Shown piece by piece: positions 24,545 through 60,135 of a DNA stretch of 64,000 nucleotides. The DNA comes from Candidatus Latescibacterota bacterium (GTDB taxonomy: Bacteria > Latescibacterota > UBA2968 > UBA8231). Within the stretch, counting starts at the first letter, position 1. Every line of letters begins with the position of its first letter. A model generated the notes under the pieces. It was not told where the DNA came from. It did not search any database and was given only the letters and a program-made list of their open reading frames with translations. The stretch covers positions 17,368 through 81,367 of the forward strand of contig SLHA01000013.1 of the NCBI GenBank assembly GCA_007136405.1. The letters run 5' to 3'. The position numbers and the translations under genes were made by a program.

Positions 24545-24771
24545 TGCCCGGATCTCCTGGAAACAGGTGGGTTGAACCCCGGCCAATCTAGTGCCGCGGC
24601 ATCGGCTCGGCAAGGTGTCCGCCGGGTCGTGCTCTTCGACGCTCATGATGGCCGCGGATCGTCCGGACAGAGGCACGGAGGATGGGCGGGAAAGCGTTGA
24701 CGGAAAGTGTTTATGGCCACGGTCCGCACGGCGTGGCTGGGGCGCCCCTCTACCGCAGTACCAGGCGGCCG

Positions 24772-35586: not shown

Positions 35587-35806
35587 TGCAGGATCCACGT
35601 AGTATGCCGGGTGCGAGTAACATAGGGGGCCATCGGGGGGAAAGCCCGCCGCTCGTTTTCGCACGCCGGGTGGACCGGGTGCCTCGACGCTTCTGGTGCC
35701 CCTGCTCATCGGCGGGACAGGGCGCCAGGACGTTGGTACCGCAGACGCCTGGCGCAGTCCGGTTACTCCGGAGCCCATATCAGCCACAGAAAAGGAGAAT
35801 AGTCAG

Positions 35807-38685: not shown

Positions 38686-40401
38686 ATGGTCGCGTGTGTG
38701 CATGTGACCCATGAGGCGGTACGGCAATCCGGCGGGATCGGCACGGTGCTGCGCGGCCTGCTGACCACGGGCTCATACCGTCAGCGGGTCGGCCGAACGC
38801 TTTTGCTGGGACCACTGGAGGACAGCGGCGCCAGGGAGCTGTCGGCGCCGGACAACTCCTTGCTGTACGACAGTGCCCGCCAGGTGCGGTATGCCGACGC
38901 ATCGGCGGCGCTGGACCGGGTGGCGGCGGCTCATGGCGTGCGCCTGGTATATGGCGTACGCCAGTTGCGGGATCAATACGGCGAAACCGCGGTGGAAGTT
39001 CTGCTGGTCGATGTCGAAGCGCCGGGTCTGCACGTCGATGCGTTCAAGTACTATCTGTCCGAGCACTTCGGCCTGGATTCGCGCCGGTACGAGGTCACCC
39101 CGGAGTATGAACGGTACCTTCGGCTGGCCGAACCCGGTTTCGAAGGAATTCGCGCTCTCCTCGGCTCATCGGACGAATTGTGCTGGCTCATCGGCCATGA
39201 ATTCATGGGGGTGTGCACCCTGCTCAAATCCATGCTGGCGGGTGACCAGCGGTTTCGAACGGCTTTCTATGCGCATGAAGTGGCCACAGTGCGCATGCTG
39301 GTAGAGGACACGCCGGGGCGCGACATCATGTTCTACAATGTGTTGCGCCTGGCCCGGCGTGAAGGGGGATACCTGACCGACCATTTCGGGCCCCAGGAAT
39401 GGTATCACAAACACGCACTGATCAGCCAGGCCTGGCGCTGTGATGCCTTGCTGGCGGTGGGTGACTGGGTGGTGGAGGAGCTGCGTTTTCTGGGACCGGA
39501 TTTCGACCGGCATGACATTTCTCTGGTATACAATGGGATACCTTCCTCTGCGGTGCCGCGGGAGGCGCGGGCAGAATCGCGCCAGCGACTGGAACGCTAT
39601 GTAGAGGCGCTGCTCGGGTACCGGCCGGACTGGATTTTCACCCATGTGACCCGGTTGGTGTCCAGCAAGGCGCTCTGGCGTGATCTGCTCGTGTTGCGTG
39701 GCATGGACAACGCGTTGGTGCAGCGGGGCCAGCGCGCGGTGTTGCTGATGCTGGCTACGGAAGTGGGCCGGCGGCAACCCGAGGCGGTGTGGCGTATGGC
39801 GGCGGAGTATGGTTGGCCGCTGGTACACCGGGAAGGGTATCCGGACCTGACGCCTGGTGAACTCCAGTTCGACTTTCAGGTCAGGGCGCTGAATGCGGCG
39901 TGCCAGGCAGTCTCCGTGATCTACATCAACCAGTTCGGTTTTGACCAGAGCAGTTGCGGACCGGCCATGCCGGCGGACATGTCTTTCGCCGATATCCGGC
40001 AGGGCACCGACGCCGAGTTCGGCCAGTCCATTTATGAACCTTTCGGGATCGCCATGCTCGAGCCGTTGAATGCCGGCGCCATCAGCGTGATCAGCGATGC
40101 CTGTGGATGTCTGGGATTTCTCGAGCGCACGGTCGGGCGGGATTTCGCTGCATTGGTCGAAGGGCAGTACACGCGTCTGGAAGACACGCTGGATATCCGC
40201 ATGGCGCGCAACCTGGGCGCCGAGGAACGCGATCGCGCCGAGGTCGCCGAGAGCCACAGAGTAGCCGAGTTGCTGCTGGAACGGTTGTCCGCTGATCCCG
40301 AAACCCGGGACCGGTTGCTGCGTCAGGGCCATGAGGCGGCGCAGCTGATGAGCTGGGAATGCGTCGCCGAGCAGATGTTTCTTCCGGCCCTGGGAATATA
40401 G
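38686..40401 (+). CDS. GT-B fold glycosyltransferase (glycogen/starch-synthase-like GG[IL]G N-motif; GT4/GT5-like)
   Basis: N-terminal VTHEAVRQSGGIGTV resembles the KTGGLGDV motif of glucan synthases. C-terminal EPFGIAMLEPLNAG is the E-x7-E region. GGAGGAGGG Shine-Dalgarno upstream of the ATG. Confidence 0.65.
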   Translation: MVACVHVTHEAVRQSGGIGTVLRGLLTTGSYRQRVGRTLLLGPLEDSGARELSAPDNSLLYDSARQVRYADASAALDRVAAAHGVRLVYGVRQLRDQYGETAVEVLLVDVEAPGLHVDAFKYYLSEHFGLDSRRYEVTPEYERYLRLAEPGFEGIRALLGSSDELCWLIGHEFMGVCTLLKSMLAGDQRFRTAFYAHEVATVRMLVEDTPGRDIMFYNVLRLARREGGYLTDHFGPQEWYHKHALISQAWRCDALLAVGDWVVEELRFLGPDFDRHDISLVYNGIPSSAVPREARAESRQRLERYVEALLGYRPDWIFTHVTRLVSSKALWRDLLVLRGMDNALVQRGQRAVLLMLATEVGRRQPEAVWRMAAEYGWPLVHREGYPDLTPGELQFDFQVRALNAACQAVSVIYINQFGFDQSSCGPAMPADMSFADIRQGTDAEFGQSIYEPFGIAMLEPLNAGAISVISDACGCLGFLERTVGRDFAALVEGQYTRLEDTLDIRMARNLGAEERDRAEVAESHRVAELLLERLSADPETRDRLLRQGHEAAQLMSWECVAEQMFLPALGI

Positions 40402-40436: not shown

Positions 40437-40583
40437 GACACCGCATGGATCAAGTCTTATATTCGCTAGTGCGCTACGCCGTCGGAACAGAACATCGGTG
40501 CCGGATTTGCTGGTGTCGCCAGGATCTGCCCCGGCTCGACTGTCATGATCCTGAAGCCAGCATCCTGCGCCACGGGAGCATAT

Positions 40584-41696
40584 ATGAGGCGACCAGCAGC
40601 ATATTGGATGATCGCGGTGAGTATCCTGATCCTCACCGGCTGCGGCAGGCCGGCGGTCAGACGCGGTGCGCCTGCGGATGCTCAGGGTGCTGTGGTCGCG
40701 GCGGAGATGGTGGCGGCCATGGTGCCGTCGCTGGGTGATGCGGAGGTAGCCTGGCTGGGCGTGCGCAACGAGCAAGGCCTGCGAGCAACGGCCGGGGACG
40801 CGGTTGGCGAACACATTCTCTCGGCCATGTTGCGCCAGGGGATCGTGGTCAGCAGTGTAGATACCACCGAAACCCGCTGGCGCGGCGAGCTGCCGGTCCC
40901 GGCCGCAGCCTGGGAATCGGTCAGCGCTCCGGTGGTCGTCGGGGGCAGAATGCATCAGGGCGGAGAATGGGCCTACCTGCGTCTGCTGGCGGTCGAAACG
41001 CAAGATGGCCGGGTGCGGAGCACCAGCCGCGGGAGGCTGCCGCTTCAGGTTCTGGAGCAACTGGCCGTTTCCGGTCCGGTGCCGGAGCTCGATCCGGTTG
41101 AACCCCTCTCGCTGGAACTCAGCGTGCAGCTGGTGGTCACGCGGGTAGAGAGCGGCACCACCCGGCAGCTCGATCTGGAAGAGGGGGGCAGCCTGTTGGC
41201 CGGAGACCGTTTGCAGTTGCGTCTCACGGTATCCCGGGCCAGCGAAGTCTACGCTTTTCTCGTGGATTCGGACGGCGAGCGGCAGCCGGTTTTCGACAGC
41301 GACATGGTCTACTCGGGGAGAGAGGTATACGGCCCGGGCCGGGAGAGCTGGGTGACACTGCAGGAGCAAGACCGGGTGTACACGCTCTATGTGGTGGCCG
41401 GCAGCAGGCTCAGTGCAGACCGGAGCGATGTGTGGCGGCAGATTACCGAGCTCATCGAGCAGGGACGGGTGGACCGGTTCGAGGGTCTCGAGCTCCAGGA
41501 TCAGTTGCTGGAAGACTATGTGCGACGCGAGCTGCCCGCGGATGCCCGGGTTACCGCGGTGCGCGGCACCGAGCATACCGAACGCGGGCAGCCGCGGAAC
41601 ATCATCCTTGGGGACGGCACGCGCCTGGTCGTGCGTCCGCATATCATCCCGGCTCAGGATGCCCTGGTTTGGGCGACCAGCTTTCTCGTTCAGTAG
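40584..41696 (+). CDS. hypothetical lipoprotein
   Basis: MRRPAAYWMIAVSILILTGC signal + lipobox. No recognised domain. Its stop is immediately followed by the Shine-Dalgarno of the next gene. Confidence 0.5.
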   Translation: MRRPAAYWMIAVSILILTGCGRPAVRRGAPADAQGAVVAAEMVAAMVPSLGDAEVAWLGVRNEQGLRATAGDAVGEHILSAMLRQGIVVSSVDTTETRWRGELPVPAAAWESVSAPVVVGGRMHQGGEWAYLRLLAVETQDGRVRSTSRGRLPLQVLEQLAVSGPVPELDPVEPLSLELSVQLVVTRVESGTTRQLDLEEGGSLLAGDRLQLRLTVSRASEVYAFLVDSDGERQPVFDSDMVYSGREVYGPGRESWVTLQEQDRVYTLYVVAGSRLSADRSDVWRQITELIEQGRVDRFEGLELQDQLLEDYVRRELPADARVTAVRGTEHTERGQPRNIILGDGTRLVVRPHIIPAQDALVWATSFLVQ

Positions 41697-43116: not shown

Positions 43117-44307
43117 TCAGAGCACCGCGGCCACGGCCTGACAGAGCCGGTCCATGTTCCCTGTGGTCATCCCGGCCACATTGATTCGCCCCGATCCGAC
43201 CATATAGATGGAATATTCATCCCGCAGGCGCTGCACCTGATCCGGCGTCAGGCCGGAAAACGAGAACATGCCGCGCTGCTTCTGGATGAACGAGAAATCG
43301 CGCTTGACCCCCTTGGCCTGCAGGGTCTCCACGAAGAGTGTGCGCATGCCCTGAATGCGGTTGCGCATGGCCTCGACTTCGTCCTCCCAGGCGCGCCGCA
43401 GGGTAGTATCGGTCAGCACCTGGGTCACGATAGCTCCGCCATGTGCCGGCGGGTTGGAATAGTTGGTACGGACCGTGATTTTCAGGTGGCTCAGGGCGCG
43501 CTCGGCTGTATCGGCGTTGGCGGCGACCAGCGTCAGGGCGCCAACGCGTTCGTTGTACAGGCCGAAGTTCTTCGAAAACGAGCTGGCCACCAGAATCTCC
43601 TCCTGGCGGTCGCAAAGGGCTTCCAGCCCCCGGGCATCTGTCCGTAAACCATCCCCCAATCCCTGGTAGGCGAAGTCCACCAGGGGAAGTATACCGCGCT
43701 CCCGGATGGTTCCGGCCAATTCCTCCCACGTCTCCGGAGACGGGTCAACGCCCGTGGGGTTGTGGCAACACCCGTGTACCAGCAGGACATCACCGGCGGG
43801 TATCTGTCGAACCGCAGCCAACATAGCCTCCGAAGCCAGATCCCGGGAGCCGGCGTCGTAGTAGGGGTACGTTTTGACCGGCACACCGGCGGATTCAAAG
43901 ACCTTGGGATGATTGGCCCAAGTCGGTTCGCTGAGCCATAGTGTGGCCCCGGGGCAGTGCTGACGGATGAAGTCGCCGGCTACGCGCAGGCCGCCGGTGC
44001 CACCGGGTGTCTGCAAGGTCACGGCACGGCCGGAAGACACCACGGGATGATCCTCACCCAGCAGCAACTCCTGGACGGCACGGCCATACTCGGGTTGACC
44101 GTCGATGGGCAGGTAGTTTTTGGACGTCTCTGTCGCCAGGATCCGTTCCTCCGCTTGCCTGACTGCGTCCAGTACGGGTGTGCGACCCTGATCGTCCTGG
44201 TATACGCCCACTCCCAGGTTGATCTTGCCGGGATTGGGATCGGCCTTGAAAGCAGCGGTCAGTCCCAGTATGGGGTCCGGGGGCGCCATATCCAGCCGTT
44301 CGAGCAT
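43117..44307 (-). CDS. aspC: aspartate/aromatic amino acid aminotransferase (class I, AspC-type)
   Basis: Near-collinear with E. coli AspC: PDPILGL, GKINLGVGVY, SSFSKNFGLYNERVGA (PLP-lysine), NPPAHG. Start at MLERLDMAPPDP by alignment to MFENITAAPADP. Confidence 0.85.
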   Translation of the reverse strand: MLERLDMAPPDPILGLTAAFKADPNPGKINLGVGVYQDDQGRTPVLDAVRQAEERILATETSKNYLPIDGQPEYGRAVQELLLGEDHPVVSSGRAVTLQTPGGTGGLRVAGDFIRQHCPGATLWLSEPTWANHPKVFESAGVPVKTYPYYDAGSRDLASEAMLAAVRQIPAGDVLLVHGCCHNPTGVDPSPETWEELAGTIRERGILPLVDFAYQGLGDGLRTDARGLEALCDRQEEILVASSFSKNFGLYNERVGALTLVAANADTAERALSHLKITVRTNYSNPPAHGGAIVTQVLTDTTLRRAWEDEVEAMRNRIQGMRTLFVETLQAKGVKRDFSFIQKQRGMFSFSGLTPDQVQRLRDEYSIYMVGSGRINVAGMTTGNMDRLCQAVAAVL

Positions 44308-44455
44308 CGAGCTTTCTGCTTTCTTTTGGAAGGTTGACAAAAAGGTTACAGCATATTGCCGTCATGGCAGGCGACGGACAATGCGGTAGACGATCAAACA
44401 ATATTCTGCGGCCATGCGCTGTCAACGTTGCCGCCGCAACCCGGCACCTGTGCCG

Positions 44456-45208
44456 TCAGCTGCCGGCTTCGGGTGCGTCCGGATGGAAAAAGCGCTGCAT
44501 GACTGGGTCGGTACTGGTGGTGGCTGCCTCGAGTCCGCCGTCAAAGATGCCTCTGCCCTGATCGAGCATGTAAATCCTGCCGGCCAGCCGCCTGATGCTG
44601 AGCAGTTCGTGGGTGATGATCACCAGCGCCATACCCTGACTGCGGTTCAGCGCCAGAAGAAGATGGTCGATACCGGCAGCGGTTACCGGATCCAGCCCGG
44701 ATCCCGGTTCGTCACAGAGCAGGACTTCCGGTTCCAGGGCCATACAACGGGCCAGCGCCGCGCGTTTGCGCATGCCGCCGGACAACTCCTCCGGATACAG
44801 ATCGAAGGCTCCGCCCAGACCGACCAATTCCAGACGGGCGCGGGCCAGGGCCTCGCGGAAGCTCGGAGCCAGGTCAGTATGCATCTCCAGAGGCAAGATG
44901 ACGTTTTCGCCGACCGTCAGCGAATTGAGCAGGGCGCCGTACTGAAACATGACGCCGCAGCGACGCAGCAGAGGCCCCCGTTCGGCCGGATCCAGGCCAT
45001 GACTCGTACGACCGAAAAGCGAGATGCGCCCGGCTCTGGGTGGCACGAGTCCGATCAGGGTTTTCAACAGGGTGCTTTTACCGCAACCGCTGTTGCCGAC
45101 CACGAGTACCACTTCGCCGGCATGCAGGTGGAAATCCAGGCCATCCAATACCGTATGGCGGTTGTACCCTACCTCCAGGCCGGTAGCCTCGATCACGGTG
45201 TCAGCCAC
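44456..45208 (-). CDS. ABC transporter ATP-binding protein, MlaF/Mkl-like
   Basis: Walker A GNSGCGKST, signature LSGGMRKR, Walker B LLCDEP, H-loop ITHEL. Confidence 0.8.
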   Translation of the reverse strand: MADTVIEATGLEVGYNRHTVLDGLDFHLHAGEVVLVVGNSGCGKSTLLKTLIGLVPPRAGRISLFGRTSHGLDPAERGPLLRRCGVMFQYGALLNSLTVGENVILPLEMHTDLAPSFREALARARLELVGLGGAFDLYPEELSGGMRKRAALARCMALEPEVLLCDEPGSGLDPVTAAGIDHLLLALNRSQGMALVIITHELLSIRRLAGRIYMLDQGRGIFDGGLEAATTSTDPVMQRFFHPDAPEAGS

Positions 45209-45215
45209 GGCAGCC

Positions 45216-46313
45216 TCATTGCACGTAGAAAACGATACCCCAGAAAAGGTTGACTGCGATGATCAGGAAGATCGACGAGACGACAGCCGCGGTGGTGGCG
45301 CGGCCGACGCCGGGGGCGCCACCGCTGTAGGAGAGGCCATGGTAGACGCTCACCACGACGATCACCCAGGCAAACGAGACGCTTTTTACCAGTCCGCTGA
45401 CGATGTCCCGCATGAACAGGGCCTCGATCAACTGGCTGGTGAACGCCTGAGGCGAGAGGCCGATGACCGTCGTGCTGGCGACGAGTCCGCCGAGGATGCC
45501 GCAGAAATTCGCCATGACGGTGAGCATGGGCATACACAGCAGCATGGCCCACAGTTTGGGCGCGACCACGAACCGCAGCGGGTCCACCGACATGGTCTGC
45601 AGCGCATCCAGTTCCTCGGTGAATCGCATGGTAGCCACTTCAGCGGCGGTGGAAGATCCGCTGCGGCCGGCCACGATGATGGCGGCCATCAGCGGCCCGA
45701 TCTCGCGGGTGATACCGATACCAACCAGTTCGGCGACGAAGACTTCGGCGCCGAACTGGCGCAACTGCTCTGCGGCCTGCAAAGCCGTGACGGCCCCGAC
45801 CAGGAACAGGATGAGTGCCACCACGGGCACTGCGGAAGATCCGAGGGCAACGCACTGTTCCACCAGCGAACCGCGCCGTACCCCGGAACGCCGCGGCACG
45901 GCCAGGATGGCGGCCCAGGTCACCTCCGACGCGACGAAGGCGAAGTTGGCCACGATTCCGCTCCATTGCAGGACGCGTTCACCCAGGTTCTCCCACCACC
46001 CTATAGCGGCTGCAGCCGCCTCGTCTTGCGGCTGTCTGCGCTTCGCCACGAACTGGAAAAAAGCCTGGAAACGGGCCGGGACCGGTTCCAGGTGTACCTG
46101 CCGGTCGAGTTCGGCTCCGACTAACGGCATGCGTTGAAGAAAGATGACGCCGGCCGTATCCAGCGCGGTTATACCGTCGAGACCGATGTGCACGGTGCCG
46201 GGTTGTGTTTCTCGCAGCAAGGCACGAAACTGAAGCTCCAGCTGGCTCAGATGGGGGATGGTCAGAGGACCGGAAATGACGATTGCGTTCGCCTGCCGCG
46301 TGGCCCGGGCCAT
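45216..46313 (-). CDS. MlaE/YrbE-family ABC permease with N-terminal STAS (MlaB-like) domain
   Basis: The C-terminal 250 aa form multi-TM MlaE-like segments. The N-terminal ~100 aa (IVISGPLTIPHLSQLELQFRALL...GLDGITALDTAGV) look like a STAS/anti-sigma-antagonist fold. Confidence 0.75.
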   Translation of the reverse strand: MARATRQANAIVISGPLTIPHLSQLELQFRALLRETQPGTVHIGLDGITALDTAGVIFLQRMPLVGAELDRQVHLEPVPARFQAFFQFVAKRRQPQDEAAAAAIGWWENLGERVLQWSGIVANFAFVASEVTWAAILAVPRRSGVRRGSLVEQCVALGSSAVPVVALILFLVGAVTALQAAEQLRQFGAEVFVAELVGIGITREIGPLMAAIIVAGRSGSSTAAEVATMRFTEELDALQTMSVDPLRFVVAPKLWAMLLCMPMLTVMANFCGILGGLVASTTVIGLSPQAFTSQLIEALFMRDIVSGLVKSVSFAWVIVVVSVYHGLSYSGGAPGVGRATTAAVVSSIFLIIAVNLFWGIVFYVQ

Positions 46314-46319
46314 GAGACC

Positions 46320-47825
46320 TCAGATGAACTTGACCAGCCGGAGCAGTACCTGCTGGGCGGACTGCAGCCTTCTGAGCGGTTTTTTGCGTTCCAGGTTCAA
46401 TACGACATCCATGTTGATGAATGGCGTCAGGAAGGTTCGTATCCGGTTCTCGAAACTGAACTCCCAGGTATCCACGCGCGCAGAGGGAATCAACACATCC
46501 AGCTCCGAGTCCAGGCTGATGTAGTCGCTGAGACGGGCGTCCATGATGAGCAGGGCTTCCAGCCCCGTGCTGGTGGAGGTACTGAGTTGGGTGGCGGTGC
46601 GCCGATCCTGGCTGAGCTCGTAGCTGTCGACATAGATGGACTGGCGCGCGCCGACTCCCAGACGCAGATCCACGTTGAGGGGTACACTCTGGTACAGCTG
46701 CGAGTTGATACCGGCTCCCTGGCGCAGATGCAGGGGATACAGGGACGGCTCCAGGGTGAACCGGGTGACATTGGAGCGGGTCTCGATCAGTTGACCCGAC
46801 GAATCCCGCAGCATCAGCTCCTGCGGAGTGTCGAAACGAACGTTGGTAGGGAAGAGCTTGGTGTTGGCCACACCGCGCAGGTACGGGCCCAGGCGGATTC
46901 CCAGTCGCATGAGGTACGTGCTGCGTATCACGACCTCATCGACGGATTTGCGCAGATAATCCCCGCTTTCCTTGGTGAAACCCTCCTCCAGGATGAATCG
47001 TAGATCGAAGAAGTGACGGGTGCCGGTATACCGGGTTCGGTTGCGAATCTGTCCGGCAAATGACAGACTGGCTCTGTCTTCTCCGGCCGTATTCTGCGTG
47101 GTGGTGAACTGGGGCGACATGCTGAGTTCCCAGCGACTGTTCCACCGGGATACCGCTTCACGAGCTTCTTCCAGGTAACCGGGTGGGAAAAATCCCACGA
47201 ACTGACCATTGCTGCCGACTACCAGATTGCGCTGAACCAGTTCTCCAGGCATCAGACGAACGCTGAAACGGCGCGGGGTAGCGATGGTCTCGCCTAATCG
47301 CACGATGGTGTAAGTGCCGGGTTCCAGCAACCAGGTGTTGACCGCCTCCCCCCGTTCCTCCTCGATGCCGTACTGCACACCGAAGTTCTCCTGCGCGGCA
47401 TCGAACAGTTCGTACGGTTCCTTGACCGAGGTGCGGGTTTCGTCGATGACGTCGATGATCAGTCCGGCCCACCAGGGCCGAATCAGCGTGGTGTGGCCTT
47501 CCTGGATCTCGAATGGGCGCCGCATCATCTGGGCGCTGGTGCCGGAGCCGATGAGAACCTCGTATTGGCCCGGATCCAGCAGAACTCCGGAACCCGTGCC
47601 GGCTTCCGCCACCCGGCTTCCGTCCCGGAGAACCTGAAACTTGGGCTCGCGATGACCCGAGGTCATGGCCGGGATGAACAACAGCCCCTTGCCCTTGGGG
47701 ATCAGGGTGGGATCCATGGCCAACTGGGCCCGGGCGCGCCGGTTCAACCAGGTTTCCTCGTCCGCACGTACGGTTGACCCGGCAAGGACCAGCAGACCGG
47801 CGCAGATGCATAACAGACGTTTCAT
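46320..47825 (-). CDS. secreted protein, predicted outer-membrane beta-barrel (DUF3078-like), embedded in Mce operon
   Basis: Signal peptide MKRLLCICAGLLVLAGSTVRA. The C-terminal half has alternating hydrophobic beta-strand pattern and ends ...LRLVKFI. No confident family call. Confidence 0.55.
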   Translation of the reverse strand: MKRLLCICAGLLVLAGSTVRADEETWLNRRARAQLAMDPTLIPKGKGLLFIPAMTSGHREPKFQVLRDGSRVAEAGTGSGVLLDPGQYEVLIGSGTSAQMMRRPFEIQEGHTTLIRPWWAGLIIDVIDETRTSVKEPYELFDAAQENFGVQYGIEEERGEAVNTWLLEPGTYTIVRLGETIATPRRFSVRLMPGELVQRNLVVGSNGQFVGFFPPGYLEEAREAVSRWNSRWELSMSPQFTTTQNTAGEDRASLSFAGQIRNRTRYTGTRHFFDLRFILEEGFTKESGDYLRKSVDEVVIRSTYLMRLGIRLGPYLRGVANTKLFPTNVRFDTPQELMLRDSSGQLIETRSNVTRFTLEPSLYPLHLRQGAGINSQLYQSVPLNVDLRLGVGARQSIYVDSYELSQDRRTATQLSTSTSTGLEALLIMDARLSDYISLDSELDVLIPSARVDTWEFSFENRIRTFLTPFINMDVVLNLERKKPLRRLQSAQQVLLRLVKFI

Positions 47826-47847
47826 GGTATTCGTGCTCCGCGAAGTT

Positions 47848-48681
47848 TCACGGGGCCAGCTTGCCCGGGATGAGCTCGTAGTAATCCGGAACCTGGACCG
47901 TGTCGGCGCCGCTTTCTTCGGTCTCGGGCCGGATGATACTTTCCTGCCACCTGGTCAGCTCGGCAGCCGGTTCACCGTTGCTGGTCAGGCGCATGAACAG
48001 GGTGTCCAATTCGTAGACGAAGAGCTCCATGTTACGCCGCAGGATCTCGCTCAGGGCCTGAACGGTGTGTTCCATGTCGGCGGCGAAAACCTCGATTTCG
48101 TCGTCCCGGGTGATATCGCCGCGCCACAACACCTGTCCATCCGTCTGTCGTGACAGCTGCAGGTTCAGAACGAGACGGGCGAACCAGCGGTCGCCGCTGT
48201 CGAACCGCTCCAGGGCGCTGATGGATCCGCTGAGCACATAGTCCGGCCGGCGATCCAGTAGTTCACGGTCCGTGGTCAGGCGTTCGAACAATTGGCCCCG
48301 CTGCAGGTATTCGGCAATGACCTGGGTGAGCATTTCCCGGGGACGCAGCCCCCAGACGTGCAGGCGATCGCGCCGGAGTTCGTAAGGCGAACTGCGGCTG
48401 AGGATCTCCAGCTGATTGTAATGGGTGGCTATATCCAGCGTTTTGAGTTGGACCGTGACCGGATAGGGCCGCATCGAACGCTCCGGCTCATGGCGGATGG
48501 GTTCGGCGACTATGGTGAAGCGCCGCCTTTGCTGGATTTCCGGGCCGCTGCCGACCAGGTATGCGCAGCCGGTCAACAGCAGTAGTGTGGGCAGCAGGCA
48601 GGTCCGAAGGAGCTTGCCGTGTGACGAAGGCGCAGCCACTGGATTGATGGGTGGATCAGCTGCCATCGGGTCGGGTCCCAC
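47848..48681 (-). CDS. ABC-type transport auxiliary lipoprotein (PqiC/YmbA-like, PF03886)
   Basis: Lipobox LLLLTGCAY followed by a ~200-aa domain with the PF03886 pattern. Start uncertain (MGPDPM or MAADPP). Confidence 0.65.
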   Translation of the reverse strand: MGPDPMAADPPINPVAAPSSHGKLLRTCLLPTLLLLTGCAYLVGSGPEIQQRRRFTIVAEPIRHEPERSMRPYPVTVQLKTLDIATHYNQLEILSRSSPYELRRDRLHVWGLRPREMLTQVIAEYLQRGQLFERLTTDRELLDRRPDYVLSGSISALERFDSGDRWFARLVLNLQLSRQTDGQVLWRGDITRDDEIEVFAADMEHTVQALSEILRRNMELFVYELDTLFMRLTSNGEPAAELTRWQESIIRPETEESGADTVQVPDYYELIPGKLAP

Positions 48682-49639
48682 CGCGGATTAGAAGGGAGGG
48701 GTTGTCGCGGACCAATTCCGACAATTCTCGGAGGTTTTGCAGGGTTTCCTCCAGATCGCGCATGGCATTGAGCACGCTGGAACGGCTTTGCAGTACCGTC
48801 TGGTCCACATGGAGAACAGTCTGGTCCATGTTTCGGGTCAGTTCGTCGATGCTGTGGATCAGGTCCGGTAACGGTCCCTGAACGGTCTGGTTGATGGACC
48901 GGGCAGACTCCTGTACGTCCGCCAGAAAACGCTGCGTGGACTCACTGACCAGCATGGCATGCAACGAGTCCATGGTGGCCTGCATGGTCACCGCGGTTCC
49001 CGCCAGCGCTCCGGAGGCCAGGGCCATGTTGGCCAGCACGGTGTCCACTTGCGGCTGGCTGCCGGCGACCAGGGCGTTGGCGGTCTCCGTCAGCTGGCTG
49101 GTGGACTCGAGGGTGCTGGCCAGGTGCCGCTGGTTTTGAGGGCCCAGCAGTATGCTGGCCCGGTCCAGCAGAATCTCCAATTTGCTGGTCAGAACCTCGG
49201 CCTGACGGTCGATGTCCGATAGAAAGGTCTCGCTGGACGGAATGAGTGATCCCGGTGGCAGCGGTTCGCTGGCACTGGATCCCGGCAGCAGTTCCAGATA
49301 CTTGAGCCCGGTGATACCGAGGTGGTAGATCACTGCCCGGGTGTCCTCACGGATGGCCTGATGTACCCGGCCCGGTTCCACGCTGATCTTGACCACGACC
49401 ACGCCGATGGCTTCCGGCGATATGTATATGTCCTCCACCCGGCCGACCGTGATGCCCTGGTATTTGACCTGGGCGCCTATATGCAGACCGCTGACTGAAA
49501 CACCTTCGAATTCGATGAAGTAGACATCCCGCTGCTGCACGAAGTGCATTCCCGCGATGGCGAGGACGAAGGCGGTCAGCATGCCACTGGCTACGACAAA
49601 AAAAACAGCGAGCCGTATCTTCTGGGTTCTGGATGCCAT
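48656..49639 (-). CDS. MCE-domain protein (MlaD/PqiB-like substrate-binding component)
   Basis: N-terminal TM helix, MCE domain (YFIEFEGVSVSGLHIGAQVKYQGITVGRVEDI), long Ser/Thr/Gln-rich helical C-terminus. Confidence 0.8.
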   Translation of the reverse strand: MASRTQKIRLAVFFVVASGMLTAFVLAIAGMHFVQQRDVYFIEFEGVSVSGLHIGAQVKYQGITVGRVEDIYISPEAIGVVVVKISVEPGRVHQAIREDTRAVIYHLGITGLKYLELLPGSSASEPLPPGSLIPSSETFLSDIDRQAEVLTSKLEILLDRASILLGPQNQRHLASTLESTSQLTETANALVAGSQPQVDTVLANMALASGALAGTAVTMQATMDSLHAMLVSESTQRFLADVQESARSINQTVQGPLPDLIHSIDELTRNMDQTVLHVDQTVLQSRSSVLNAMRDLEETLQNLRELSELVRDNPSLLIRGGTRPDGS

Positions 49640-50156
49640 GAAAACAAAGTTGAATCAGGATGGGCGCATGTCGCGCATGAGAATCACTATCCACAGAATA
49701 TGGCCCGATGCATCAACAGAGGCAAGCAGTGCACATCTGATGGGCGGCAACCGGGTGTTTACTTCTGGCCGCTGTACAGGGCGTGTCCTATTTTCTATGA
49801 GGTTGCTGCCGCCGTGCCGGGCAGACGGCCTGTGCTGTCCCGGCGCCCGTCAACCGCCACCTTCGTCGTTGTGATCCGTATCTGATGACCCGTATGAGGC
49901 CCGGTGTGTTCCCGGCACTGTCCGGCGACTGCCTGCGTGCATCCGGCTATGGCCGGTGTCCAGCTCTTGTACCTGGCCAGAATGGCGCGGCCATTCCGGC
50001 GGGTGCCGGTCTGGGTCCGGACGCTGGAAAGGCTTACATCGACGCATATGCAGCCCGCCTCGTGGTGCAATCGGCGGGTATGCCTGGAGACAGCCCAACG
50101 GCGGTCAGTCATGCGGTGTCTGGACACGCATGCTGTCCGGGGAAAGTGTGGCGTTC

Positions 50157-53100
50157 ATGATCACGGAGTTCTACCAGGGTCGTACCATTCTGCTGACCGG
50201 AGGCAGCGGTTTTCTGGGCCAGGGACTGGCAGCCAAGATATTGCGCGATCTGCCGGGCATCGAACGGCTGTACCTGCTGCTCCGCAGCCGGCGCCAGACG
50301 GACGGTAGTCTGCTGACCGCAGCCGAACGCCTGGAGTCGGAGATTTTTCGGGCGGACGTCTTCGATCGCTTTCGCCGCGAAGAACCGGAGCCGTTCGCGG
50401 CGGCCAAAGCCCGGACCCGCGCCATCGAGTTCGACATGGGCGCTCCCGGACTGGGCCTCGCTGACGCGGACCGGGATGAACTGGTGCGGCATGTGGACTG
50501 CGTCATCGGTGCCGCCGCGACAGTCGTCTTCGACGAGCCTCTGGACCTGGCGGTGCAGGTCAATACGCTCGGACCACAGCAGCTGCTGGAACTGGCCCGG
50601 CAGTGTGACAAGCAGGTTGTCTTCGTGCACGTGTCGACGGCGTATGTCAGCGGGCAGTTGCAGGGCCAGATCGTCGAGGCGCCCTTGCCGGAGGATCGGA
50701 CGGTACGTCAGTTGATGGCGCGATCGCAGCCGGCGGCTAGCTTCGATCCAGCAGCGGAGGTAACGGCCTGCCTCGAGTACGGCAGACAGGTGCGCGAACT
50801 GGCCGAAACTCCGGCAAAAGAGGCTGAATTCAGCCGGCAGATTCTGTCACAGCATCACAACCACAGCCTGTCGCCGTCCCGCCTCGCCAAACTGGTCGAA
50901 GACCGGCGCAAGCGCTGGATCGAACGTCAACTCACCCGCGAAGGCGTCCGGCGGGCTCAGGCGCATGGGTGGAATGACGTCTACACGTTCACCAAGGCGA
51001 TGGGCGAGCAGCTGCTGACGCGCGAGCGCGGTGATGTGCCTCTGGTGATCGTGCGGCCCAGTATCGTGGAGAGCAGCCTGTCGGATCCGCAACCGGGCTG
51101 GGTTTTCGGGCTCAAGGTGGCTGATCCGTTGATCGTCGGATACGGCCGCGGTTTGGTACCGGATTTCCCCACGCCACGGAACGTGGTCATGGATCTGGTT
51201 CCGGTGGACGTCGTAGTCAACACCATCCTCGCCGCCGCCACGCAAGCAAGCTCTACAACGGTGCAGGTGTACCACGCCGCCACCAGCGGCGTGTGCCCGT
51301 TGACCATGCAGCAGATGTACGACTATGTGCGCAGCTATTTTCAGGAGTATCCCATGCGTGGCCGGGACGGTTCCACTCCGGAACTGCCCGAATGGACCTT
51401 TCCCAGCCCATGGCTGTTCAAGCTCCGTTTCAAACTGCGGTATTTCTATCCGTTGCGGGCGCAGCAGTGGCTCCTGGCCAGGCTTCCCACCAGACTGGCG
51501 CCTGTGGCCCAGAAAAGGCGGCTGGCCGCGCTGGAAAAACGTCTGCTGCGTGTCCTGTATTACACCGAGTTGTTCGGACCCTATACCCGGTTGAGCTGTC
51601 GCTATGTGACCACGCGGGCGCAAGCCCTGTTCGAATCACTCCCGGCCGACGACAAACTGCGTTTCAACATGGATATCCGGCGCCTCGAATGGCGCAGCTA
51701 CATCCGTGAGGTCCATATCCCGGGTCTGCGCCGTCATGTCCTGCGCGAGGAACAGACCGAAGAAACGCTTCTCAGAGAGGCTCCGGAAGAGCTGGGTGAC
51801 GAAGAAGAGCAGTGGCGTATCGAAGAGAGCATCCGGACCATTCCTGACCTGATTCGCTGGTCCTGTGCCCGTTACGGAGACGCCGTGGCCCTGCGCGCCA
51901 CGGGGAAGACGCAAGGTGCGCGCCAGTACACCTATACTCAGCTGCAACAGGCCATAAGCGACATGGGGGCATATTGGGAATCCAGCGGATTGGCTACCGG
52001 GCAGCGCGTCCTGCTGTGCGCTGAAAACAGCCCGGAGTGGGTCATCGCCTATATGGCGGCCTCATGCCTGGGGTTGGTGGTGGTGCCTGTTGACCCGCAG
52101 ACCCCAGGCCGTGAAGTGTGGGCCCTGGCAGCGTTCACCGGCGCTCGCGCCTTACTGGTGTCGGTTTCGGTCTGGGACGGACTGGCACCCACGTTGACGG
52201 ATGCTTCGCCTGCCGTATTCGGGTTATCGGACGGCGGGCTGCGGCTGCACGGCGCCGAACCGTCTCCTGCCGGCGCTCGCAAGGGAGACTGGCATCCGCC
52301 TGCGGTCGAGCCGGATCAACTCGCCTCGATCGCCTTTGTCTCCGGGACCCTGGTCAGCCCCCGCGGGGCCATGCTCAGTCACCGCAACTTCATCTCCGAC
52401 GTCATGGCGCTGGCGGAAATACACCGGCTGGGAGCTGATGACCGCGTCCTTTCGCTCCTGCCGTTGCACCACTGCCTGGAGTTCACCGGCGGAATGTTGT
52501 TGCCCTTGCTGGGCGGCGCCTCCATCACTTATCCGGGTGAACCCAACAGCAGGATCATTCTGGACGCATTGCGGCAACACGGCATCACGGCCGTTTTGAC
52601 GGTCCCGCGTCTGCTGAAGATCCTGGTGGACCGGATCGGCCGGTTGGTGGCCACGGCCGGACGCGGGGAGAGTATCCCTGAACTGGACGCCCTCCGGTCC
52701 GTTCGGCTGCTGGTGAGCGGCGGAGCGCCGTTGCCGCCGGTCGTTTTCCGGGAATTCGAGCGTCTGGGGATTCTGGTGCATGAGGGATACGGGCTGACCG
52801 AAGCCGCACCCATCGTCACGGTGTCACCGCCGGGAGAACCGCGGGCGGGATCGGCAGGCAAAGCCATACCCGGCGTCGAACTGCGAATTCGCCACCCGGA
52901 TGAACAGGGCATCGGTGAGATTCTGGTGCGTGGCCCCATGGTGATGCAAGGCTATCTGAACCAGCCGGAACTGACGGCATCCGTTCTGCGGGATGGCTGG
53001 CTGCATACGGGTGACCTGGGACGAGTCGACGCGGATGGTTACCTGTGGATCACCGGTCGCACCAAGCAGCTGGTGGTGACCGGTGCCGGTAAAAACGTCT

Positions 53101-54401
53101 ACCCCGAGGAAGTGGAGATTCTTTATGCGGATCTACCCCACGTGGTCGAACTGGCCGTAGTCGGAGTGCCTTCCCCGCGAACGCTCAGTGAGGAAGTCCA
53201 GGCGGTGGCCGTGGTGCGCAGGACGGAAAGCGATGATTGGCAGACGGTGGAGACCGAGGTCAGGGCTGCGACCCAGCGTCTGGCCATCTCCATCCCGTCT
53301 CATCAGCGCATTCAACGGCTGCACCTGTGGCAGCGGCCTCTTCCCAGGCTGGACAATGGTGCAGTGGACCGCGCTGCTGTGCAGCTGGAGCTGGAGTACG
53401 AGACCGAAGCAGCGGTTTCCGGCACAGCGCTCCCGGAGCTGGCGGACTGGGAACTGGGGGTGTGTGACCGCATTGCCAGAATGACCGGGCTGACCCGGGA
53501 GCATGTCGCGGCGCACGCGGATGCACCCCTGGACACCCTCATGGATTCGTTGATGGCCATCGAGTTTGCGTCTGTCCTGGAAAACCAGGTGGACGGGCGC
53601 AAGCTGCGCATCGATCGCGCCCAGATGACGCTGCGGCAGCTGCTGGATCATCTGAAACCGCAACTGAAGGACGGGAAGCACGGCCATTGGAGCGCAGCCG
53701 GAGCGCCGGACTCGGTGCGATACTGGTCGCAAGTGCTGGCCGATGCGGACCGGAAATCACCCCGGGACACCGTGCCACCGGGCCACACCGGCGGCTGGAA
53801 TTCCACCCAGAACGCGCTTTGGCGGGCACTGGGACTGGTGTTTGCCAAGCGGCTGCAGGTAGTTGTCAGTGGCGCCGAGGAACTGCCGGATACCGGGCCC
53901 TATCTGCTGGCTGCCAGTCCTTGCCGAGCCATGGATGCGCTGGCTCTCGTGGCGGCGGTTCGGCCCCATATCGAGCATTGCCACCTGCTGGCCATCAATG
54001 ACATCCAGGTAAAAGCGCGATGGCAGGACTGGCTGGTACGGTACCTGTTGAATGGCGCCGCCCTGGACCACGCCGAAGAGATGCGGGATACGCTCATGCT
54101 GGCCCGGGAGCGGGTGGGAGTCCGGCGTCCTCTGCTGGTTTTTTCCGGGGAGGGCCGCGCGGGCACCAGTCAACCGCAGCCGTACCGGGCAACGGTGGGG
54201 CTGCTGGCGTGCGAACTCGACCTGCCGGTGGTGCCGGTGTACATAGATCTGTCCCGGCGGCGGCGCAGCCTGCGTATAGGTCCACCGCTCCATCCCGCAC
54301 CGTTCAGGGACCGTGCCGACCTGCTCACCCCCTATGAAGTGTACCAGGAAATAGCCGCATCCCTGCAGCGCCGGATCCGGATGCTGCAGGAATCAGCCTG
54401 A
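50157..54401 (+). CDS. multidomain lipid-biosynthesis enzyme: fatty-acyl reductase (NAD_binding_4/FAR) + AMP-dependent acyl-CoA ligase + carrier-protein-like motif + PlsC/LPLAT-like acyltransferase (ElbD-like architecture)
   Basis: N-terminus ILLTGGSGFLGQ...YTFTKAMGE (Rossmann + YxxxK) followed by a FAR_C-like region. Middle: SGTLVSPRGAMLSHRN (degenerate A3 motif), YGLTEAAP, GWLHTGDLG. LDTLMDSLMAIEFAS is a phosphopantetheine-site-like DSL motif. The C-terminal ~210 aa are acyltransferase-like. Start at MITEFYQG; GTG 50148 is the alternative. Confidence 0.8.
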   Translation: MITEFYQGRTILLTGGSGFLGQGLAAKILRDLPGIERLYLLLRSRRQTDGSLLTAAERLESEIFRADVFDRFRREEPEPFAAAKARTRAIEFDMGAPGLGLADADRDELVRHVDCVIGAAATVVFDEPLDLAVQVNTLGPQQLLELARQCDKQVVFVHVSTAYVSGQLQGQIVEAPLPEDRTVRQLMARSQPAASFDPAAEVTACLEYGRQVRELAETPAKEAEFSRQILSQHHNHSLSPSRLAKLVEDRRKRWIERQLTREGVRRAQAHGWNDVYTFTKAMGEQLLTRERGDVPLVIVRPSIVESSLSDPQPGWVFGLKVADPLIVGYGRGLVPDFPTPRNVVMDLVPVDVVVNTILAAATQASSTTVQVYHAATSGVCPLTMQQMYDYVRSYFQEYPMRGRDGSTPELPEWTFPSPWLFKLRFKLRYFYPLRAQQWLLARLPTRLAPVAQKRRLAALEKRLLRVLYYTELFGPYTRLSCRYVTTRAQALFESLPADDKLRFNMDIRRLEWRSYIREVHIPGLRRHVLREEQTEETLLREAPEELGDEEEQWRIEESIRTIPDLIRWSCARYGDAVALRATGKTQGARQYTYTQLQQAISDMGAYWESSGLATGQRVLLCAENSPEWVIAYMAASCLGLVVVPVDPQTPGREVWALAAFTGARALLVSVSVWDGLAPTLTDASPAVFGLSDGGLRLHGAEPSPAGARKGDWHPPAVEPDQLASIAFVSGTLVSPRGAMLSHRNFISDVMALAEIHRLGADDRVLSLLPLHHCLEFTGGMLLPLLGGASITYPGEPNSRIILDALRQHGITAVLTVPRLLKILVDRIGRLVATAGRGESIPELDALRSVRLLVSGGAPLPPVVFREFERLGILVHEGYGLTEAAPIVTVSPPGEPRAGSAGKAIPGVELRIRHPDEQGIGEILVRGPMVMQGYLNQPELTASVLRDGWLHTGDLGRVDADGYLWITGRTKQLVVTGAGKNVYPEEVEILYADLPHVVELAVVGVPSPRTLSEEVQAVAVVRRTESDDWQTVETEVRAATQRLAISIPSHQRIQRLHLWQRPLPRLDNGAVDRAAVQLELEYETEAAVSGTALPELADWELGVCDRIARMTGLTREHVAAHADAPLDTLMDSLMAIEFASVLENQVDGRKLRIDRAQMTLRQLLDHLKPQLKDGKHGHWSAAGAPDSVRYWSQVLADADRKSPRDTVPPGHTGGWNSTQNALWRALGLVFAKRLQVVVSGAEELPDTGPYLLAASPCRAMDALALVAAVRPHIEHCHLLAINDIQVKARWQDWLVRYLLNGAALDHAEEMRDTLMLARERVGVRRPLLVFSGEGRAGTSQPQPYRATVGLLACELDLPVVPVYIDLSRRRRSLRIGPPLHPAPFRDRADLLTPYEVYQEIAASLQRRIRMLQESA

Positions 54402-55370: not shown

Positions 55371-56534
55371 TTACAGCAGGGAACGAACGTTGCGGATGGT
55401 CGCGGGCGTACCCATGGCAGCAGCCGATGCCGCCGTCTGGTTGGCTGTTTCGACCCCCTGGGCGCCATCCAGCAACGAGGCGGGATTCTCCGAACCCGTG
55501 ACCACGTGACGCAGGAACAATTCCCACTGGTGCCGGAAGGCATTTTCGGGGACGGCGGCCTGTTCGTACAGCTCCCATCCCTCCGGAAAATCCTCCCGGC
55601 TGGCCGTGTCGGGGTCCCAGGCTATGGACGGTGTGCGCTCATTGGAGATCCAGTAGCAGCGATCCAGGTATACTTCGGCCGCGCCCTCTGTGCCCTGGAT
55701 ACGAATTTCCAGCAGGCCGCGTTTGCGCGGACGACGGCACCAGGAAGATACGGTGGTACAGACGACCGGTTCCGGGCTCAGGGCGCTGTCCGCTTCAAAG
55801 GTGGCATAGACGGAGTCCTCGGCCGTGGTAGGCACGGGCTGGCCATTGCGTGTCCGTTGCTTGATATGCAATGCCGCATGGGCGCTGACCCGGCTGGGCT
55901 GGCCGACCAGGTGCTTGAGCAGGTAATCCCAGTGGGACACCATGTCCAGTATGATGCCGCCACCCTCCGCCTTGTCGGCATTCCAGTCGGGACGCGTCCC
56001 GTCGTCGGGATGGACGAAGTAGCCGAAATCGAGGAGGACATGCAGGGGTTGACCGATCAGCCCGCGATCGATCAGATCCATGGCCTGAGCCGGTCCGCAC
56101 AGGTAGCGTTTGTCCTGCACCACACCGCCACACACGCCTCGCTGGCGGCAGCGGCGCACCAGATCCAGTGATTCGTCCACACTCAAGGTCAGCGGTTTTT
56201 CCGTGTACACATGCATGCCGCTGTCTATCGCTCTGGTCAGCCCCTCATGATGCAGTTTGGTAGGACTGCCTTCGAAATACACGGCATGATCCGGCGGGTT
56301 ACGAAATACAGCCTCTACATCCGTGCTGTAGGGATAGCCGAACTGACGGGCCAGCGGCGCCAGGGTTTCCTCGCGCCGCCCCAGCAGGAACGGTGCCGGC
56401 ATGATGCGGTCGCCGTTGTCCAGATTCACACCACCGGCTTGGATGATCGACGCCAGGGATCTCTCCAGGTGCTGCCGGCGGGTCATCCTGCCCGTGGCGG
56501 AACGCAGAAAAACGGGGATCTCGATGGTGGCCAT
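55371..56534 (-). CDS. Gfo/Idh/MocA-like oxidoreductase with divergent N-terminus (no GxGxxG)
   Basis: NPPDHAVYFEGSPTKLHHEGLTRAIDSGMHVYTEKP is the family helix/EKP region with C-terminal domain. The N-terminal 70 aa lack the glycine-rich loop. Confidence 0.6.
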   Translation of the reverse strand: MATIEIPVFLRSATGRMTRRQHLERSLASIIQAGGVNLDNGDRIMPAPFLLGRREETLAPLARQFGYPYSTDVEAVFRNPPDHAVYFEGSPTKLHHEGLTRAIDSGMHVYTEKPLTLSVDESLDLVRRCRQRGVCGGVVQDKRYLCGPAQAMDLIDRGLIGQPLHVLLDFGYFVHPDDGTRPDWNADKAEGGGIILDMVSHWDYLLKHLVGQPSRVSAHAALHIKQRTRNGQPVPTTAEDSVYATFEADSALSPEPVVCTTVSSWCRRPRKRGLLEIRIQGTEGAAEVYLDRCYWISNERTPSIAWDPDTASREDFPEGWELYEQAAVPENAFRHQWELFLRHVVTGSENPASLLDGAQGVETANQTAASAAAMGTPATIRNVRSLL

Positions 56535-56740: not shown

Positions 56741-57820
56741 TCACGGGCTCCACCGGGCAATCCGGTCCAGCGCGGCAGCGGCGCTTTCCTGGTCGCTCAC
56801 GCCGCTCACCAGCAACCAGGCCCCTTCTGGACGCAAGGCCTGGAAAACCTCCGGCAGCTCCCGCACCGAAACGTTGAGACAGAACGACTTGCCGCGCTGC
56901 TGAATGCGGCGGTACACCGGCACCCACTGGCGCCAATGGTCCCGGCCCGCGCCGGGCACCCACTGGATCGCATGGATCTGAGGCAGATCGAGCAGTATAT
57001 CCAGGTAACGCAAGGCCTGGGGACCGTCGAGATGGTAGATGCACCGGTCCATGGGCTCGCATTCGCGCACGATCCCGGGTAGAAAGATGTCCTGGAACAT
57101 GCGGTCGGTGATCATGCAGGAGAAATCATTGGACGGCACGTGAAACTTGCCGCGGCAGGTAGCCGGCAGCCAGGTGGTGCTCGGCATCCCGGCGGCGCTC
57201 AATCGTCGATGGTAAAAGTCGTACACCTGAAGGAAATCCGTGGTGATCCGCTCTACCAGGGAGCGCACCTCCGCGGGATGTTCGATCATGTCCAGGCACA
57301 GTTGCTGTGGATCGCGGAACGCGGCGACGGCATCACCACCGCCGTGCAGATCCGTGTACCCCACGATGAACCGCCCCCGCCCGGCTTCGATCAGGGCGTC
57401 GGTCATCTCCGTGAGCTTGGCGCCGTACGGTCCCGTCAGGTCCAGTTGCAGTTGATCGAGGGCGGCCTGGCCCCAATCATGCAGGATAGGCAAGCTCCAG
57501 GAGGTGGTTTCTCCGAACTCCAGGGGACAGCCGTACAATGCGGAGAAAATCTCCGGTCCCAGATTGGGGTAGGTGACGGGCAGAGCATCGGCATGAAAGC
57601 AGGTGTTGGCCATGCGGGAACAGGCCTGCTCGACCACCCACTGGGTGTCCAGCCAGCGGTCGCGCAGCGTGGCATGGTGGCGCGGTGCGGGCGGGGGGAT
57701 CTGGTTCCGTTGCGGCCGAGGAAAGGTCATCGACACCAGGGGGCGATCGATGATCTGAGCGTCCCACCACGCTTCGTACCGGTCAAGTACCGCATCGAAA
57801 TCCGGTTTGCATTCGAACAT
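56741..57820 (-). CDS. hypothetical protein, possibly UroD-like (uroporphyrinogen decarboxylase/methyltransferase) fold
   Basis: Weak resemblance (…IYHLDGP..., length) to the UroD family. No strong motif. Confidence 0.4.
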   Translation of the reverse strand: MFECKPDFDAVLDRYEAWWDAQIIDRPLVSMTFPRPQRNQIPPPAPRHHATLRDRWLDTQWVVEQACSRMANTCFHADALPVTYPNLGPEIFSALYGCPLEFGETTSWSLPILHDWGQAALDQLQLDLTGPYGAKLTEMTDALIEAGRGRFIVGYTDLHGGGDAVAAFRDPQQLCLDMIEHPAEVRSLVERITTDFLQVYDFYHRRLSAAGMPSTTWLPATCRGKFHVPSNDFSCMITDRMFQDIFLPGIVRECEPMDRCIYHLDGPQALRYLDILLDLPQIHAIQWVPGAGRDHWRQWVPVYRRIQQRGKSFCLNVSVRELPEVFQALRPEGAWLLVSGVSDQESAAAALDRIARWSP

Positions 57821-59926: not shown

Positions 59927-60135
59927 AAACAACCGGACATCCGTGTCCGCGGGAAAGCCGGGCCGTTGCACCGGCACAACCTCCACTGGTCCCTTATATC
60001 GGCAGCACCAAGGCGTCCTTTAGGATTGACAGTCGCATGGAGGCCGGATAGATTCCGTGCGGTGCGGTGAAACAGCGGTATCTATTCGTATCCTCCCGGC
60101 TGGTGGGCCGCCAGCGAATATTGCGGAGATGCTTC

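Follow-up and report, generated by a model that had tools for sequence, protein, structure and literature searches.

A five-gene MCE-type transporter locus with a predicted outer-membrane barrel, divergent from an ElbD-like gene, in a Latescibacterota genome

The closest described relatives of the transporter considered here are PA3211-14 of Pseudomonas aeruginosa and MpcEFDA of Brucella abortus. Both systems are encoded by four genes and combine an MlaE/MlaF ABC engine, a single-MCE MlaD protein of ~310-330 aa with a long needle, and a PqiC-like lipoprotein; both lack MlaA and MlaC and have no known barrel partner. The helical needle of PA3213 and the octameric PqiC-like lipoprotein PA3214 span ~230 Å. 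The 2026 PA3213-PA3214 paper notes that porin binding is not known for PqiC-like proteins and allows that they may have outer-membrane partners yet to be found; the hand-over of lipid between needle-type MCE systems and the outer membrane is openly acknowledged as a gap. We analyzed a 64-kb stretch of contig SLHA01000013.1 from a Candidatus Latescibacterota bacterium (hereafter the window), in which five minus-strand genes encode such a transporter together with a 501-aa predicted barrel protein, and in which a divergent plus-strand gene encodes a 1414-aa protein resembling ElbD of Myxococcus xanthus. The barrel protein is an integral component of a five-component transporter class and offers a concrete, testable candidate for filling that gap. 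For the locus as a whole, we favor, at somewhat better than even, two separable modules lying back to back, namely a general five-component transporter of envelope glycerolipids and an ElbD-family enzyme with reduced catalytic equipment, their adjacency reflecting a conserved membrane-lipid gene neighborhood.

Transporter genes compared with described MCE systems

All six genes were confirmed by open reading frame (ORF) comparison and Pfam (Table 1). Their coordinates and the 517-bp gap agree with the preliminary description of the locus, whose domain assignments (MCE, PqiC-like, outer-membrane protein, STAS-MlaE, ATPase, reductase, ligase, carrier and acyltransferase) also hold, with DUF3078 and Acyltransferase below threshold and the carrier (PP-binding) recognized by its DSL motif. 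The G+C content is ~64% across the window, so long spurious ORFs are abundant; however, homologue searches returned many full-length homologues for each of the six proteins, so they are real genes and not chance ORFs of GC-rich DNA. The MCE and lipoprotein genes overlap by 11 or 26 nt, depending on whether the lipoprotein starts at the ATG at 48666 or the GTG at 48681, and the following gaps are 22, 6 and 7 nt.

In its AlphaFold2 model, the window MlaD has a transmembrane helix (residues 4-34), a confident MCE domain (38-135) and helices at 139-312, giving a C-terminal helical part of ~180 residues. A profile search against the PDB identified P. aeruginosa PA3213 as its closest solved relative (PDB 13HR chain I, E 4.5e-30, residues 1-262). 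The C-terminal NPS(I/L)LIRG motif of MlaD is conserved in eight loci and is plausibly a docking peptide by analogy with those described for PA3213 and PqiB. The lipobox of the lipoprotein reads LLTGC, and its cysteine is kept in all eight orthologues examined; no sequence match to this lipoprotein was found in the PDB, PA3214 and PqiC included. The permease passes the TIGR00056 cut-off and matches MlaE structures in the PDB at E 5e-36. The ATPase scores 140 bits against the NCBIfam MlaF model, under the equivalog cut-off of 441, so its MlaF label derives from its position in the operon.

The core Mla parts are thus all present (MlaE permease, ATPase in the MlaF position, MlaD MCE protein and STAS partner). 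The single-MCE protein falls in the range of ~310-330 aa, carries long C-terminal helices and is co-encoded with a lipobox-bearing PqiC-like lipoprotein, and the transporter is therefore of the needle type with a PqiC-like lipoprotein, like PA3211-14 and Brucella Mpc. It is not a PqiABC system, since its engine is an MlaE/MlaF ABC rather than PqiA and its MCE protein has one MCE domain rather than the three of PqiB. The likeness to Mpc extends to the fusion of STAS to the permease (MpcE) and to the size of its MlaD (331 aa). The two differ in gene order, which is MlaD, lipoprotein, barrel, MlaE, MlaF (D-C-O-E-F) in the window and E-F-D-A in Mpc, and in the 501-aa barrel protein that the window encodes between the lipoprotein and the permease. 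The preliminary description had called the absence of MlaA and MlaC unusual. Pfam scans of the operon and of other window ORFs found neither family, but the needle type needs neither, and their absence is expected rather than anomalous.

Escherichia coli Mla shares with the window a homologous MlaE, an ATPase at the MlaF position, an MlaD with an MCE domain and a STAS partner. It differs in its short MlaD, its soluble MlaC shuttle and its MlaA-porin complex, and the STAS-permease fusion is a feature of the window. An MCE bridge ending in an outer-membrane beta-barrel is known from two other systems. The chloroplast TGD system (TGD1-5) ends in the outer-membrane barrel TGD4. In Veillonella parvula, the barrel is fused to MlaD, whereas in the class described here it is separate or fused to the PqiC-like lipoprotein; MlaD proteins bearing a barrel were absent from the FCB and PVC phyla in a published survey (PMC10665443). 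LptD-LptE and PelB-PelC likewise pass a hydrophobic or polymeric substrate by pairing a barrel in the outer membrane with a lipoprotein of PqiC-like alpha/beta fold. Compared with LptD and PelB, the window barrel is small (~14 strands) and of no demonstrated homology, and its pairing with the lipoprotein is deduced from operon structure and fusions alone.

Barrel protein and the five-component class

The outer-membrane protein (OMP) consists of a signal peptide, two periplasmic beta-rich domains (~47-213) and a predicted beta-barrel of ~14 strands (228-498). No Pfam family was found for its N-terminal domain, and structural matches of the barrel were generic, the best being Tsx. Many of its orthologues pass the gathering cut-off of DUF3078 (PF11276), which the window protein itself fails, so it is either a distant member or a relative of DUF3078.

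A profile search over 1.84 billion representatives yielded 775 relatives of the OMP, 240 of them at E <= 1e-30. Fusions were counted among the best 150 relatives, and gene order was surveyed in 80 metagenome loci (L093-L172). A PqiC-like domain precedes the barrel in the same polypeptide in 38 of the 150 representatives, and the lipobox cysteine ahead of this domain is invariant in the fused proteins. Named examples come from metagenome-assembled genomes (MAGs) of Desulfobacterales, Deltaproteobacteria and Myxococcales, where the annotation reads simply 'PqiC'. Across the 80 metagenome loci, genes for MlaD, MlaE and MlaF share the strand of the OMP relative wherever the flank is available, the lipoprotein and barrel genes are either split or fused (ORF-level fusions in at least 22 loci), and the orders D-C-O-E-F, E-F-D-C-O and O-E-F-D-C are related, as versions of one module, by cyclic permutation. 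In each of the 11 Latescibacterota-type transporter loci (the window, L001, L002, L081-L084, L087, L089, L091 and L092), the OMP gene is flanked by the lipoprotein gene and mlaE. The window order, which had been considered unusual with its leading MCE gene and central OMP, is therefore the usual order of a widespread five-gene class.

This constant co-operonic placement and the frequent fusion to a PqiC-like lipoprotein make the barrel a candidate for the missing outer-membrane partner of PqiC-type systems. In the literature searched, neither a description of the barrel family in MCE systems nor a mention of DUF3078 in a lipid-transport context was found. We hold at a little short of even the combined proposal that the 501-aa barrel is that missing partner, that the window exemplifies a widespread five-component class, that lipoprotein and barrel act as one unit, being one polypeptide in Desulfobacterales and Myxococcales MAGs, and that the Latescibacterota machine may also have been recruited for ElbD/DAG-kinase alkyl glycerolipids. 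Taken separately, an additional recruitment of the Latescibacterota transporter to traffic alkyl glycerolipids derived from ElbD and diacylglycerol (DAG) kinase appears doubtful.

In such a machine, a (STAS-MlaE)2-MlaF2 ABC engine would reside in the inner membrane, and a presumably hexameric MlaD would extend from it, with an MCE ring and a helical needle crossing the periplasm. MlaD presumably docks through its conserved C-terminal peptide into the PqiC-like lipoprotein, itself anchored in the outer membrane, and the barrel protein would contact that lipoprotein with its N-terminal periplasmic domains. The ~14-strand barrel would then give lipid its point of entry into, or exit from, the outer membrane.

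The ElbD-like enzyme

The M. xanthus ElbD protein (MXAN_1528) comprises an N-terminal FAR1-like reductase followed by ACS, ACP and AGPAT domains (PMC9131029), and the window protein has the same four-domain order. Its N-terminal reductase, previously taken as a departure from ElbD, is thus canonical. The window protein differs from M. xanthus ElbD in having no elbA, elbB, elbC or elbE neighbors, in the non-canonical A3 and A10 motifs of its ligase and in the loss of the acyltransferase catalytic motifs. Another related architecture is FARAT (M. xanthus MXAN_1675; also in Tetrahymena and other protists), a single chain that begins with a fatty-acyl reductase (FAR) and ends with a glycerolipid acyltransferase. 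Unlike the window protein, it has no ligase or carrier insert, and its partner is AGPS, of which none is present in the window.

Homologues of ~1400 aa are numerous in MAGs labeled Latescibacterota, Gemmatimonadota, Handelsmanbacteria, Planctomycetota and Fervidibacterota, and full-length matches to myxobacterial, acidobacterial and planctomycete homologues are collinear. In direct alignment, identity is 27-30% to the ElbD-type proteins of Anaeromyxobacter, Myxococcales and Bradymonadaceae; relative to MXAN_1528 itself, the supplement of a 2026 preprint puts its Latescibacterota elbD hits at 29-30% identity. A genome scan with the ElbD alignment was dominated by generic acyl-CoA ligases, and only ~12 of its 80 loci were of true ElbD type. 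The NCBI start of the window gene lies nine codons upstream, and the N-termini of homologues favor 50157. Pfam positions were obtained on a 1481-aa ORF (80-424, 528-598, 634-1001 and 1302-1430) and convert to the 1414-aa numbering by subtracting 67.

The earlier reading of this protein as a four-domain megaenzyme stands as far as the domains themselves and the intact FAR and carrier motifs are concerned, but the enzyme is not fully equipped. The reductase, of eukaryote-like type, retains TGGSGFLGQ (GxxGxxG) and YTFTKAMGE (YxxxK), its best PDB match being the plant fatty acyl-CoA reductase 7eoz (E 1e-74). Carrier residues D1130 and S1131 are invariant in the homologue alignment; no significant Pfam PP-binding match was found in the window protein, while distant homologues do carry PF00550. 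The ligase domain matches FadD5 in the PDB, but its A3 loop reads VSGTLVSPRG and the A10 lysine position is occupied by alanine (NGAVDR). Both motifs are non-canonical across the clade of ElbD proteins at >=43% identity, in which A3 is mostly FTS--VLEPRG and various residues take the place of the A10 lysine, whereas myxobacterial and planctomycete homologues retain TSGTTGxPKG and the lysine. In the acyltransferase domain, SPCRAMD stands in place of HX4D (NHxSHLD), FSGEGR in place of FPEGTR and ALDH in place of PFDR. Judging from these motifs, the acyltransferase appears to be catalytically dead in this genome and the ligase domain to be non-canonical.

In comparable pairs, the acyltransferase domain is 39% identical versus 54-56% and so diverges faster. 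Loss of its active site recurs in P0073-P0096 (AASRPGPAAA, AASGTGRVSL and similar sequences), P0002 has HX3D, and the reductase, ligase-like and carrier parts are conserved. Such a pattern suggests that acyltransferase activity may be dispensable in this ElbD clade. That Latescibacterota homologues have a degenerate ligase core, keep the reductase and carrier and seem repeatedly to lose acyltransferase catalysis bears on which ElbD activities are needed, and cautions that domain architecture alone is an insufficient ground for inferring ether-lipid capacity. For alkyl (ether-type) lipids, the enzyme would most likely deliver a fatty aldehyde or alcohol derived from the carrier or from CoA, with the remaining ether-lipid steps supplied by other enzymes.

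An apparent AGPS gene in the window (19213-20769, plus strand) was rejected. Its FAD_binding_4/FAD-oxidase_C domains identify a GlcD-type glycolate/D-lactate oxidase (E 5e-102), and AGPS matches only in the FAD domain (E 1e-27). The adjoining gene (20766-22115, plus strand) encodes an Fe-S/CCG protein that is a GlcF-like partner of the GlcD-like gene, and this domain pair is what AGPS screens look for. A sponge-symbiont preprint table lists similar 512-aa hits as '23% identity agps'.

Neighborhood conservation and competing explanations

The proposed conservation of the mce/elbD pairing in related genomes was borne out. The transporter is divergent from elbD in nine of the ten sampled Latescibacterota-type lineages (the window, L001, L002, L081-L084, L087 and L089), with ElbD identity ranging from 65% down to 43%. 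The tenth lineage splits the two modules, in that L090 carries elbD with two downstream genes and no transporter, and L091 and L092 carry a DAG-kinase gene with the transporter and no elbD. No MCE genes adjoin the ElbD loci of other phyla or those at <=41% identity, and no ElbD, DAG-kinase or Lgt gene lies within 8 kb in any of the 80 other transporter loci. In the literature searched, no paper mentioning ElbD together with Mla/MCE genes was found.

The relatives carry additional associated genes. In most of them, mlaD is immediately preceded, at a distance of 50-196 bp, by a DAG-kinase gene of the same orientation, which accompanies the transporter even where elbD is not alongside (L091 and L092). 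Homologues also occur with elbD across phyla (Table 1): two Acidobacteriota loci have one directly ahead of elbD, and in Phycisphaerae one is close by, which hints at a real ElbD-DAG kinase link. An Lgt-family gene (PF01790, ~255 aa) and then an old yellow enzyme gene (Oxidored_FMN, ~490 aa) directly follow elbD in L001, L002, L083, L084, L087, L089 and L090, the last of which lacks the transporter; in L082, only the Lgt-family gene follows. That these two proteins might provide glyceryl transfer and ene reduction in an ether route independent of AGPS is pure speculation. The DAG-kinase, Lgt-family and old yellow enzyme genes are absent from the elbD locus in both the window and L081, and tblastn with DAG-kinase, Lgt and dihydrofolate reductase (DHFR) queries found no remnants of DAG-kinase, Lgt, old yellow enzyme or DHFR genes in the window. 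Genes for DHFR, two aminotransferases and, it appears, two unknown proteins also belong to the conserved block, so synteny inertia is sufficient to explain the adjacency.

The preliminary description had inferred that synthesis and export of an unusual lipid are coupled here. The recurrence of the pairing, the placement of the ElbD-associated kinase gene upstream of mlaD in relatives, and a note in the sponge-symbiont preprint of transporters near elb clusters agree with a dedicated synthesis-plus-export unit and leave coupling possible. However, the class occurs without ElbD, DAG kinase or Lgt nearby at 80 of 80 loci, and ElbD occurs without MCE neighbors in other phyla; the transporter is therefore not ElbD-specific. 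The modules come apart in one lineage, inheritance alone can account for a block that also includes DHFR and aminotransferase genes, and the window itself lacks the DAG-kinase and Lgt genes and has an acyltransferase that looks dead. The characterized ABC-driven MCE systems (Mla, Mce1/4 and TGD) move lipid inward, and none is known to export. Taken together, these points leave the export part of the earlier proposal unsupported, and we regard an export unit as unlikely. The same inward precedent of MlaE-type ABC systems (see also PMC10665443) speaks for uptake or retrograde salvage, in which barrel, lipoprotein, needle and ABC engine would bring fatty acids or glycerolipids inward for processing by the ligase and reductase of a cytoplasmic ElbD and, in relatives, by DAG kinase. 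A ligase-like domain and a lipid kinase do adjoin the transporter, and the match of that domain to FadD5 is suggestive. The mycobacterial mce1 operon, a possible analogue, begins with fadD5. Nevertheless, it is in precisely this clade that A3 and A10 have degenerated, a point against efficient activation of fatty acids, the transporter class is widespread without a ligase nearby, and the barrel matches are generic (best Tsx), so that salvage appears quite improbable. A functional ElbD-transporter link, export and salvage versions combined, stands at roughly one in three.

A further explanation, that the window elbD is decaying and no longer takes part in lipid synthesis while only the transporter is functional, would account for the lost motifs and faster evolution of the acyltransferase, the non-canonical ligase motifs and the missing partner genes. 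Against it, the 1414-codon ORF is intact, and identical degenerate acyltransferase and A3 motifs occur in four near-identical cluster members (P0001 and P0121-P0123) from different contigs and sources. In addition, the FAR, ligase and carrier regions are 68-71% identical to the nearest relative, the FAR motifs and the carrier serine are kept, and acyltransferase motifs are also lost in lineages that keep all partner genes, where the enzyme evidently works without this activity. We therefore consider decay very unlikely. The reading we prefer, that of two separable modules including a general glycerolipid transporter, has evidence to answer as well: ElbD and the transporter stay adjacent down to 43% ElbD identity, the DAG-kinase gene of relatives sits directly upstream of mlaD on the transporter strand and has homologues that directly adjoin elbD in Acidobacteriota and lie close to it in Planctomycetota, and the fusions imply a 1:1 ratio of lipoprotein to barrel, which does not fit easily with the octameric rings that PqiC forms in known systems. 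On balance, general transport of envelope glycerolipids is the most likely role of the transporter, rather than dedicated export of the ElbD product.

Table 1. Positions of the locus features in the window and of DAG-kinase genes accompanying elbD in other loci
Feature	Locus	Position	Strand	Evidence
MlaD-type MCE protein, 327 aa	window	48656-49639	minus	Pfam PF02470, E 3e-15
PqiC-like lipoprotein (ABC_trans_aux)	window	47848-48681	minus	PF03886, E 6e-9, 36.2 bits (cut-off 26)
Outer-membrane protein, 501 aa	window	46320-47825	minus	DUF3078 20.9 bits, under cut-off 25
STAS-fused MlaE permease	window	45216-46313	minus	MlaE E 2e-71; STAS_2 29.3 bits (cut-off 29.2)
ABC ATPase in MlaF position	window	44456-45208	minus	Pfam ABC_tran E 2e-28
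Divergent intergenic region, 517 bp, between mlaD and elbD-like gene	window	49640-50156		
ElbD-like protein, 1414 aa	window	50157-54401	plus	NAD_binding_4 E 8e-61; Sterile E 3e-10; AMP-binding E 1e-72
FAR domain (aa 1-530), NAD_binding_4 + Sterile	window	50157-51746	plus	Pfam; GxxGxxG and YxxxK intact
Acyl-CoA-ligase-like domain (aa 566-1080)	window	51852-53396	plus	AMP-binding E 1e-72
Carrier (ACP-like) region (aa 1095-1175)	window	53439-53681	plus	DSL serine motif
Acyltransferase-like domain (aa 1236-1414)	window	53862-54398	plus	Pfam Acyltransferase 20 bits, under cut-off 23
DAG-kinase gene (DAGK_cat/YegS_C)	L003	9169-9936		
DAG-kinase gene (DAGK_cat/YegS_C)	L005	9165-9932		
DAG-kinase gene (DAGK_cat/YegS_C)	L006	16326-17111		
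DAG-kinase gene (DAGK_cat/YegS_C)	L009	14243-15082		

The 517-bp gap, which corresponds to the place of the DAG-kinase gene in most relatives, gave no sign of a conserved regulatory element: it contains no block conserved with L081 (a relative at 65% identity), no promoter-like site and no Rfam match, and no tRNA or Rfam feature was found in the whole window. Neighboring genes in the window encode cupin, GFO/IDH/MocA, PALP and other proteins; the elb operon partners ElbB (HAD) and ElbE (epimerase) are not among them, and the more distant Latescibacteria homologue L088 does have a HAD gene downstream. Beyond mlaF, the window carries an aminotransferase gene (43117-44455) with no DHFR there. In L081, the closest relative, DHFR is fused to a class I/II aminotransferase (470-2197, 575 aa), and other relatives have a separate DHFR gene after mlaF.

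Several sizeable ORFs with coding-like G+C at third codon positions match no Pfam family (38686-40401, 40545-41696, 22176-23345 and 60067-60810 on the plus strand and 56741-57820 on the minus strand). The first two appear to have counterparts in L091 and L092 (587 and 344 aa), to judge from size and position, and the minus-strand ORF (359 aa) is conserved in L082. Elsewhere, a 941-aa protein (3086-5911, plus strand) joins Peptidase_MA_2 and beta-propeller repeats of the PD40 (TolB-like) kind to an Omp85 barrel at the C-terminus, an unusual Omp85 architecture for which no POTRA match was reported, and it is directly followed by a gene for a BamB-like PQQ_2 propeller protein (5899-7005, plus strand). 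The window also contains four paralogues of the GFO/IDH/MocA oxidoreductase family within its 64 kb (17963-19093, 23504-24676, 35696-36820 and 55371-56534).

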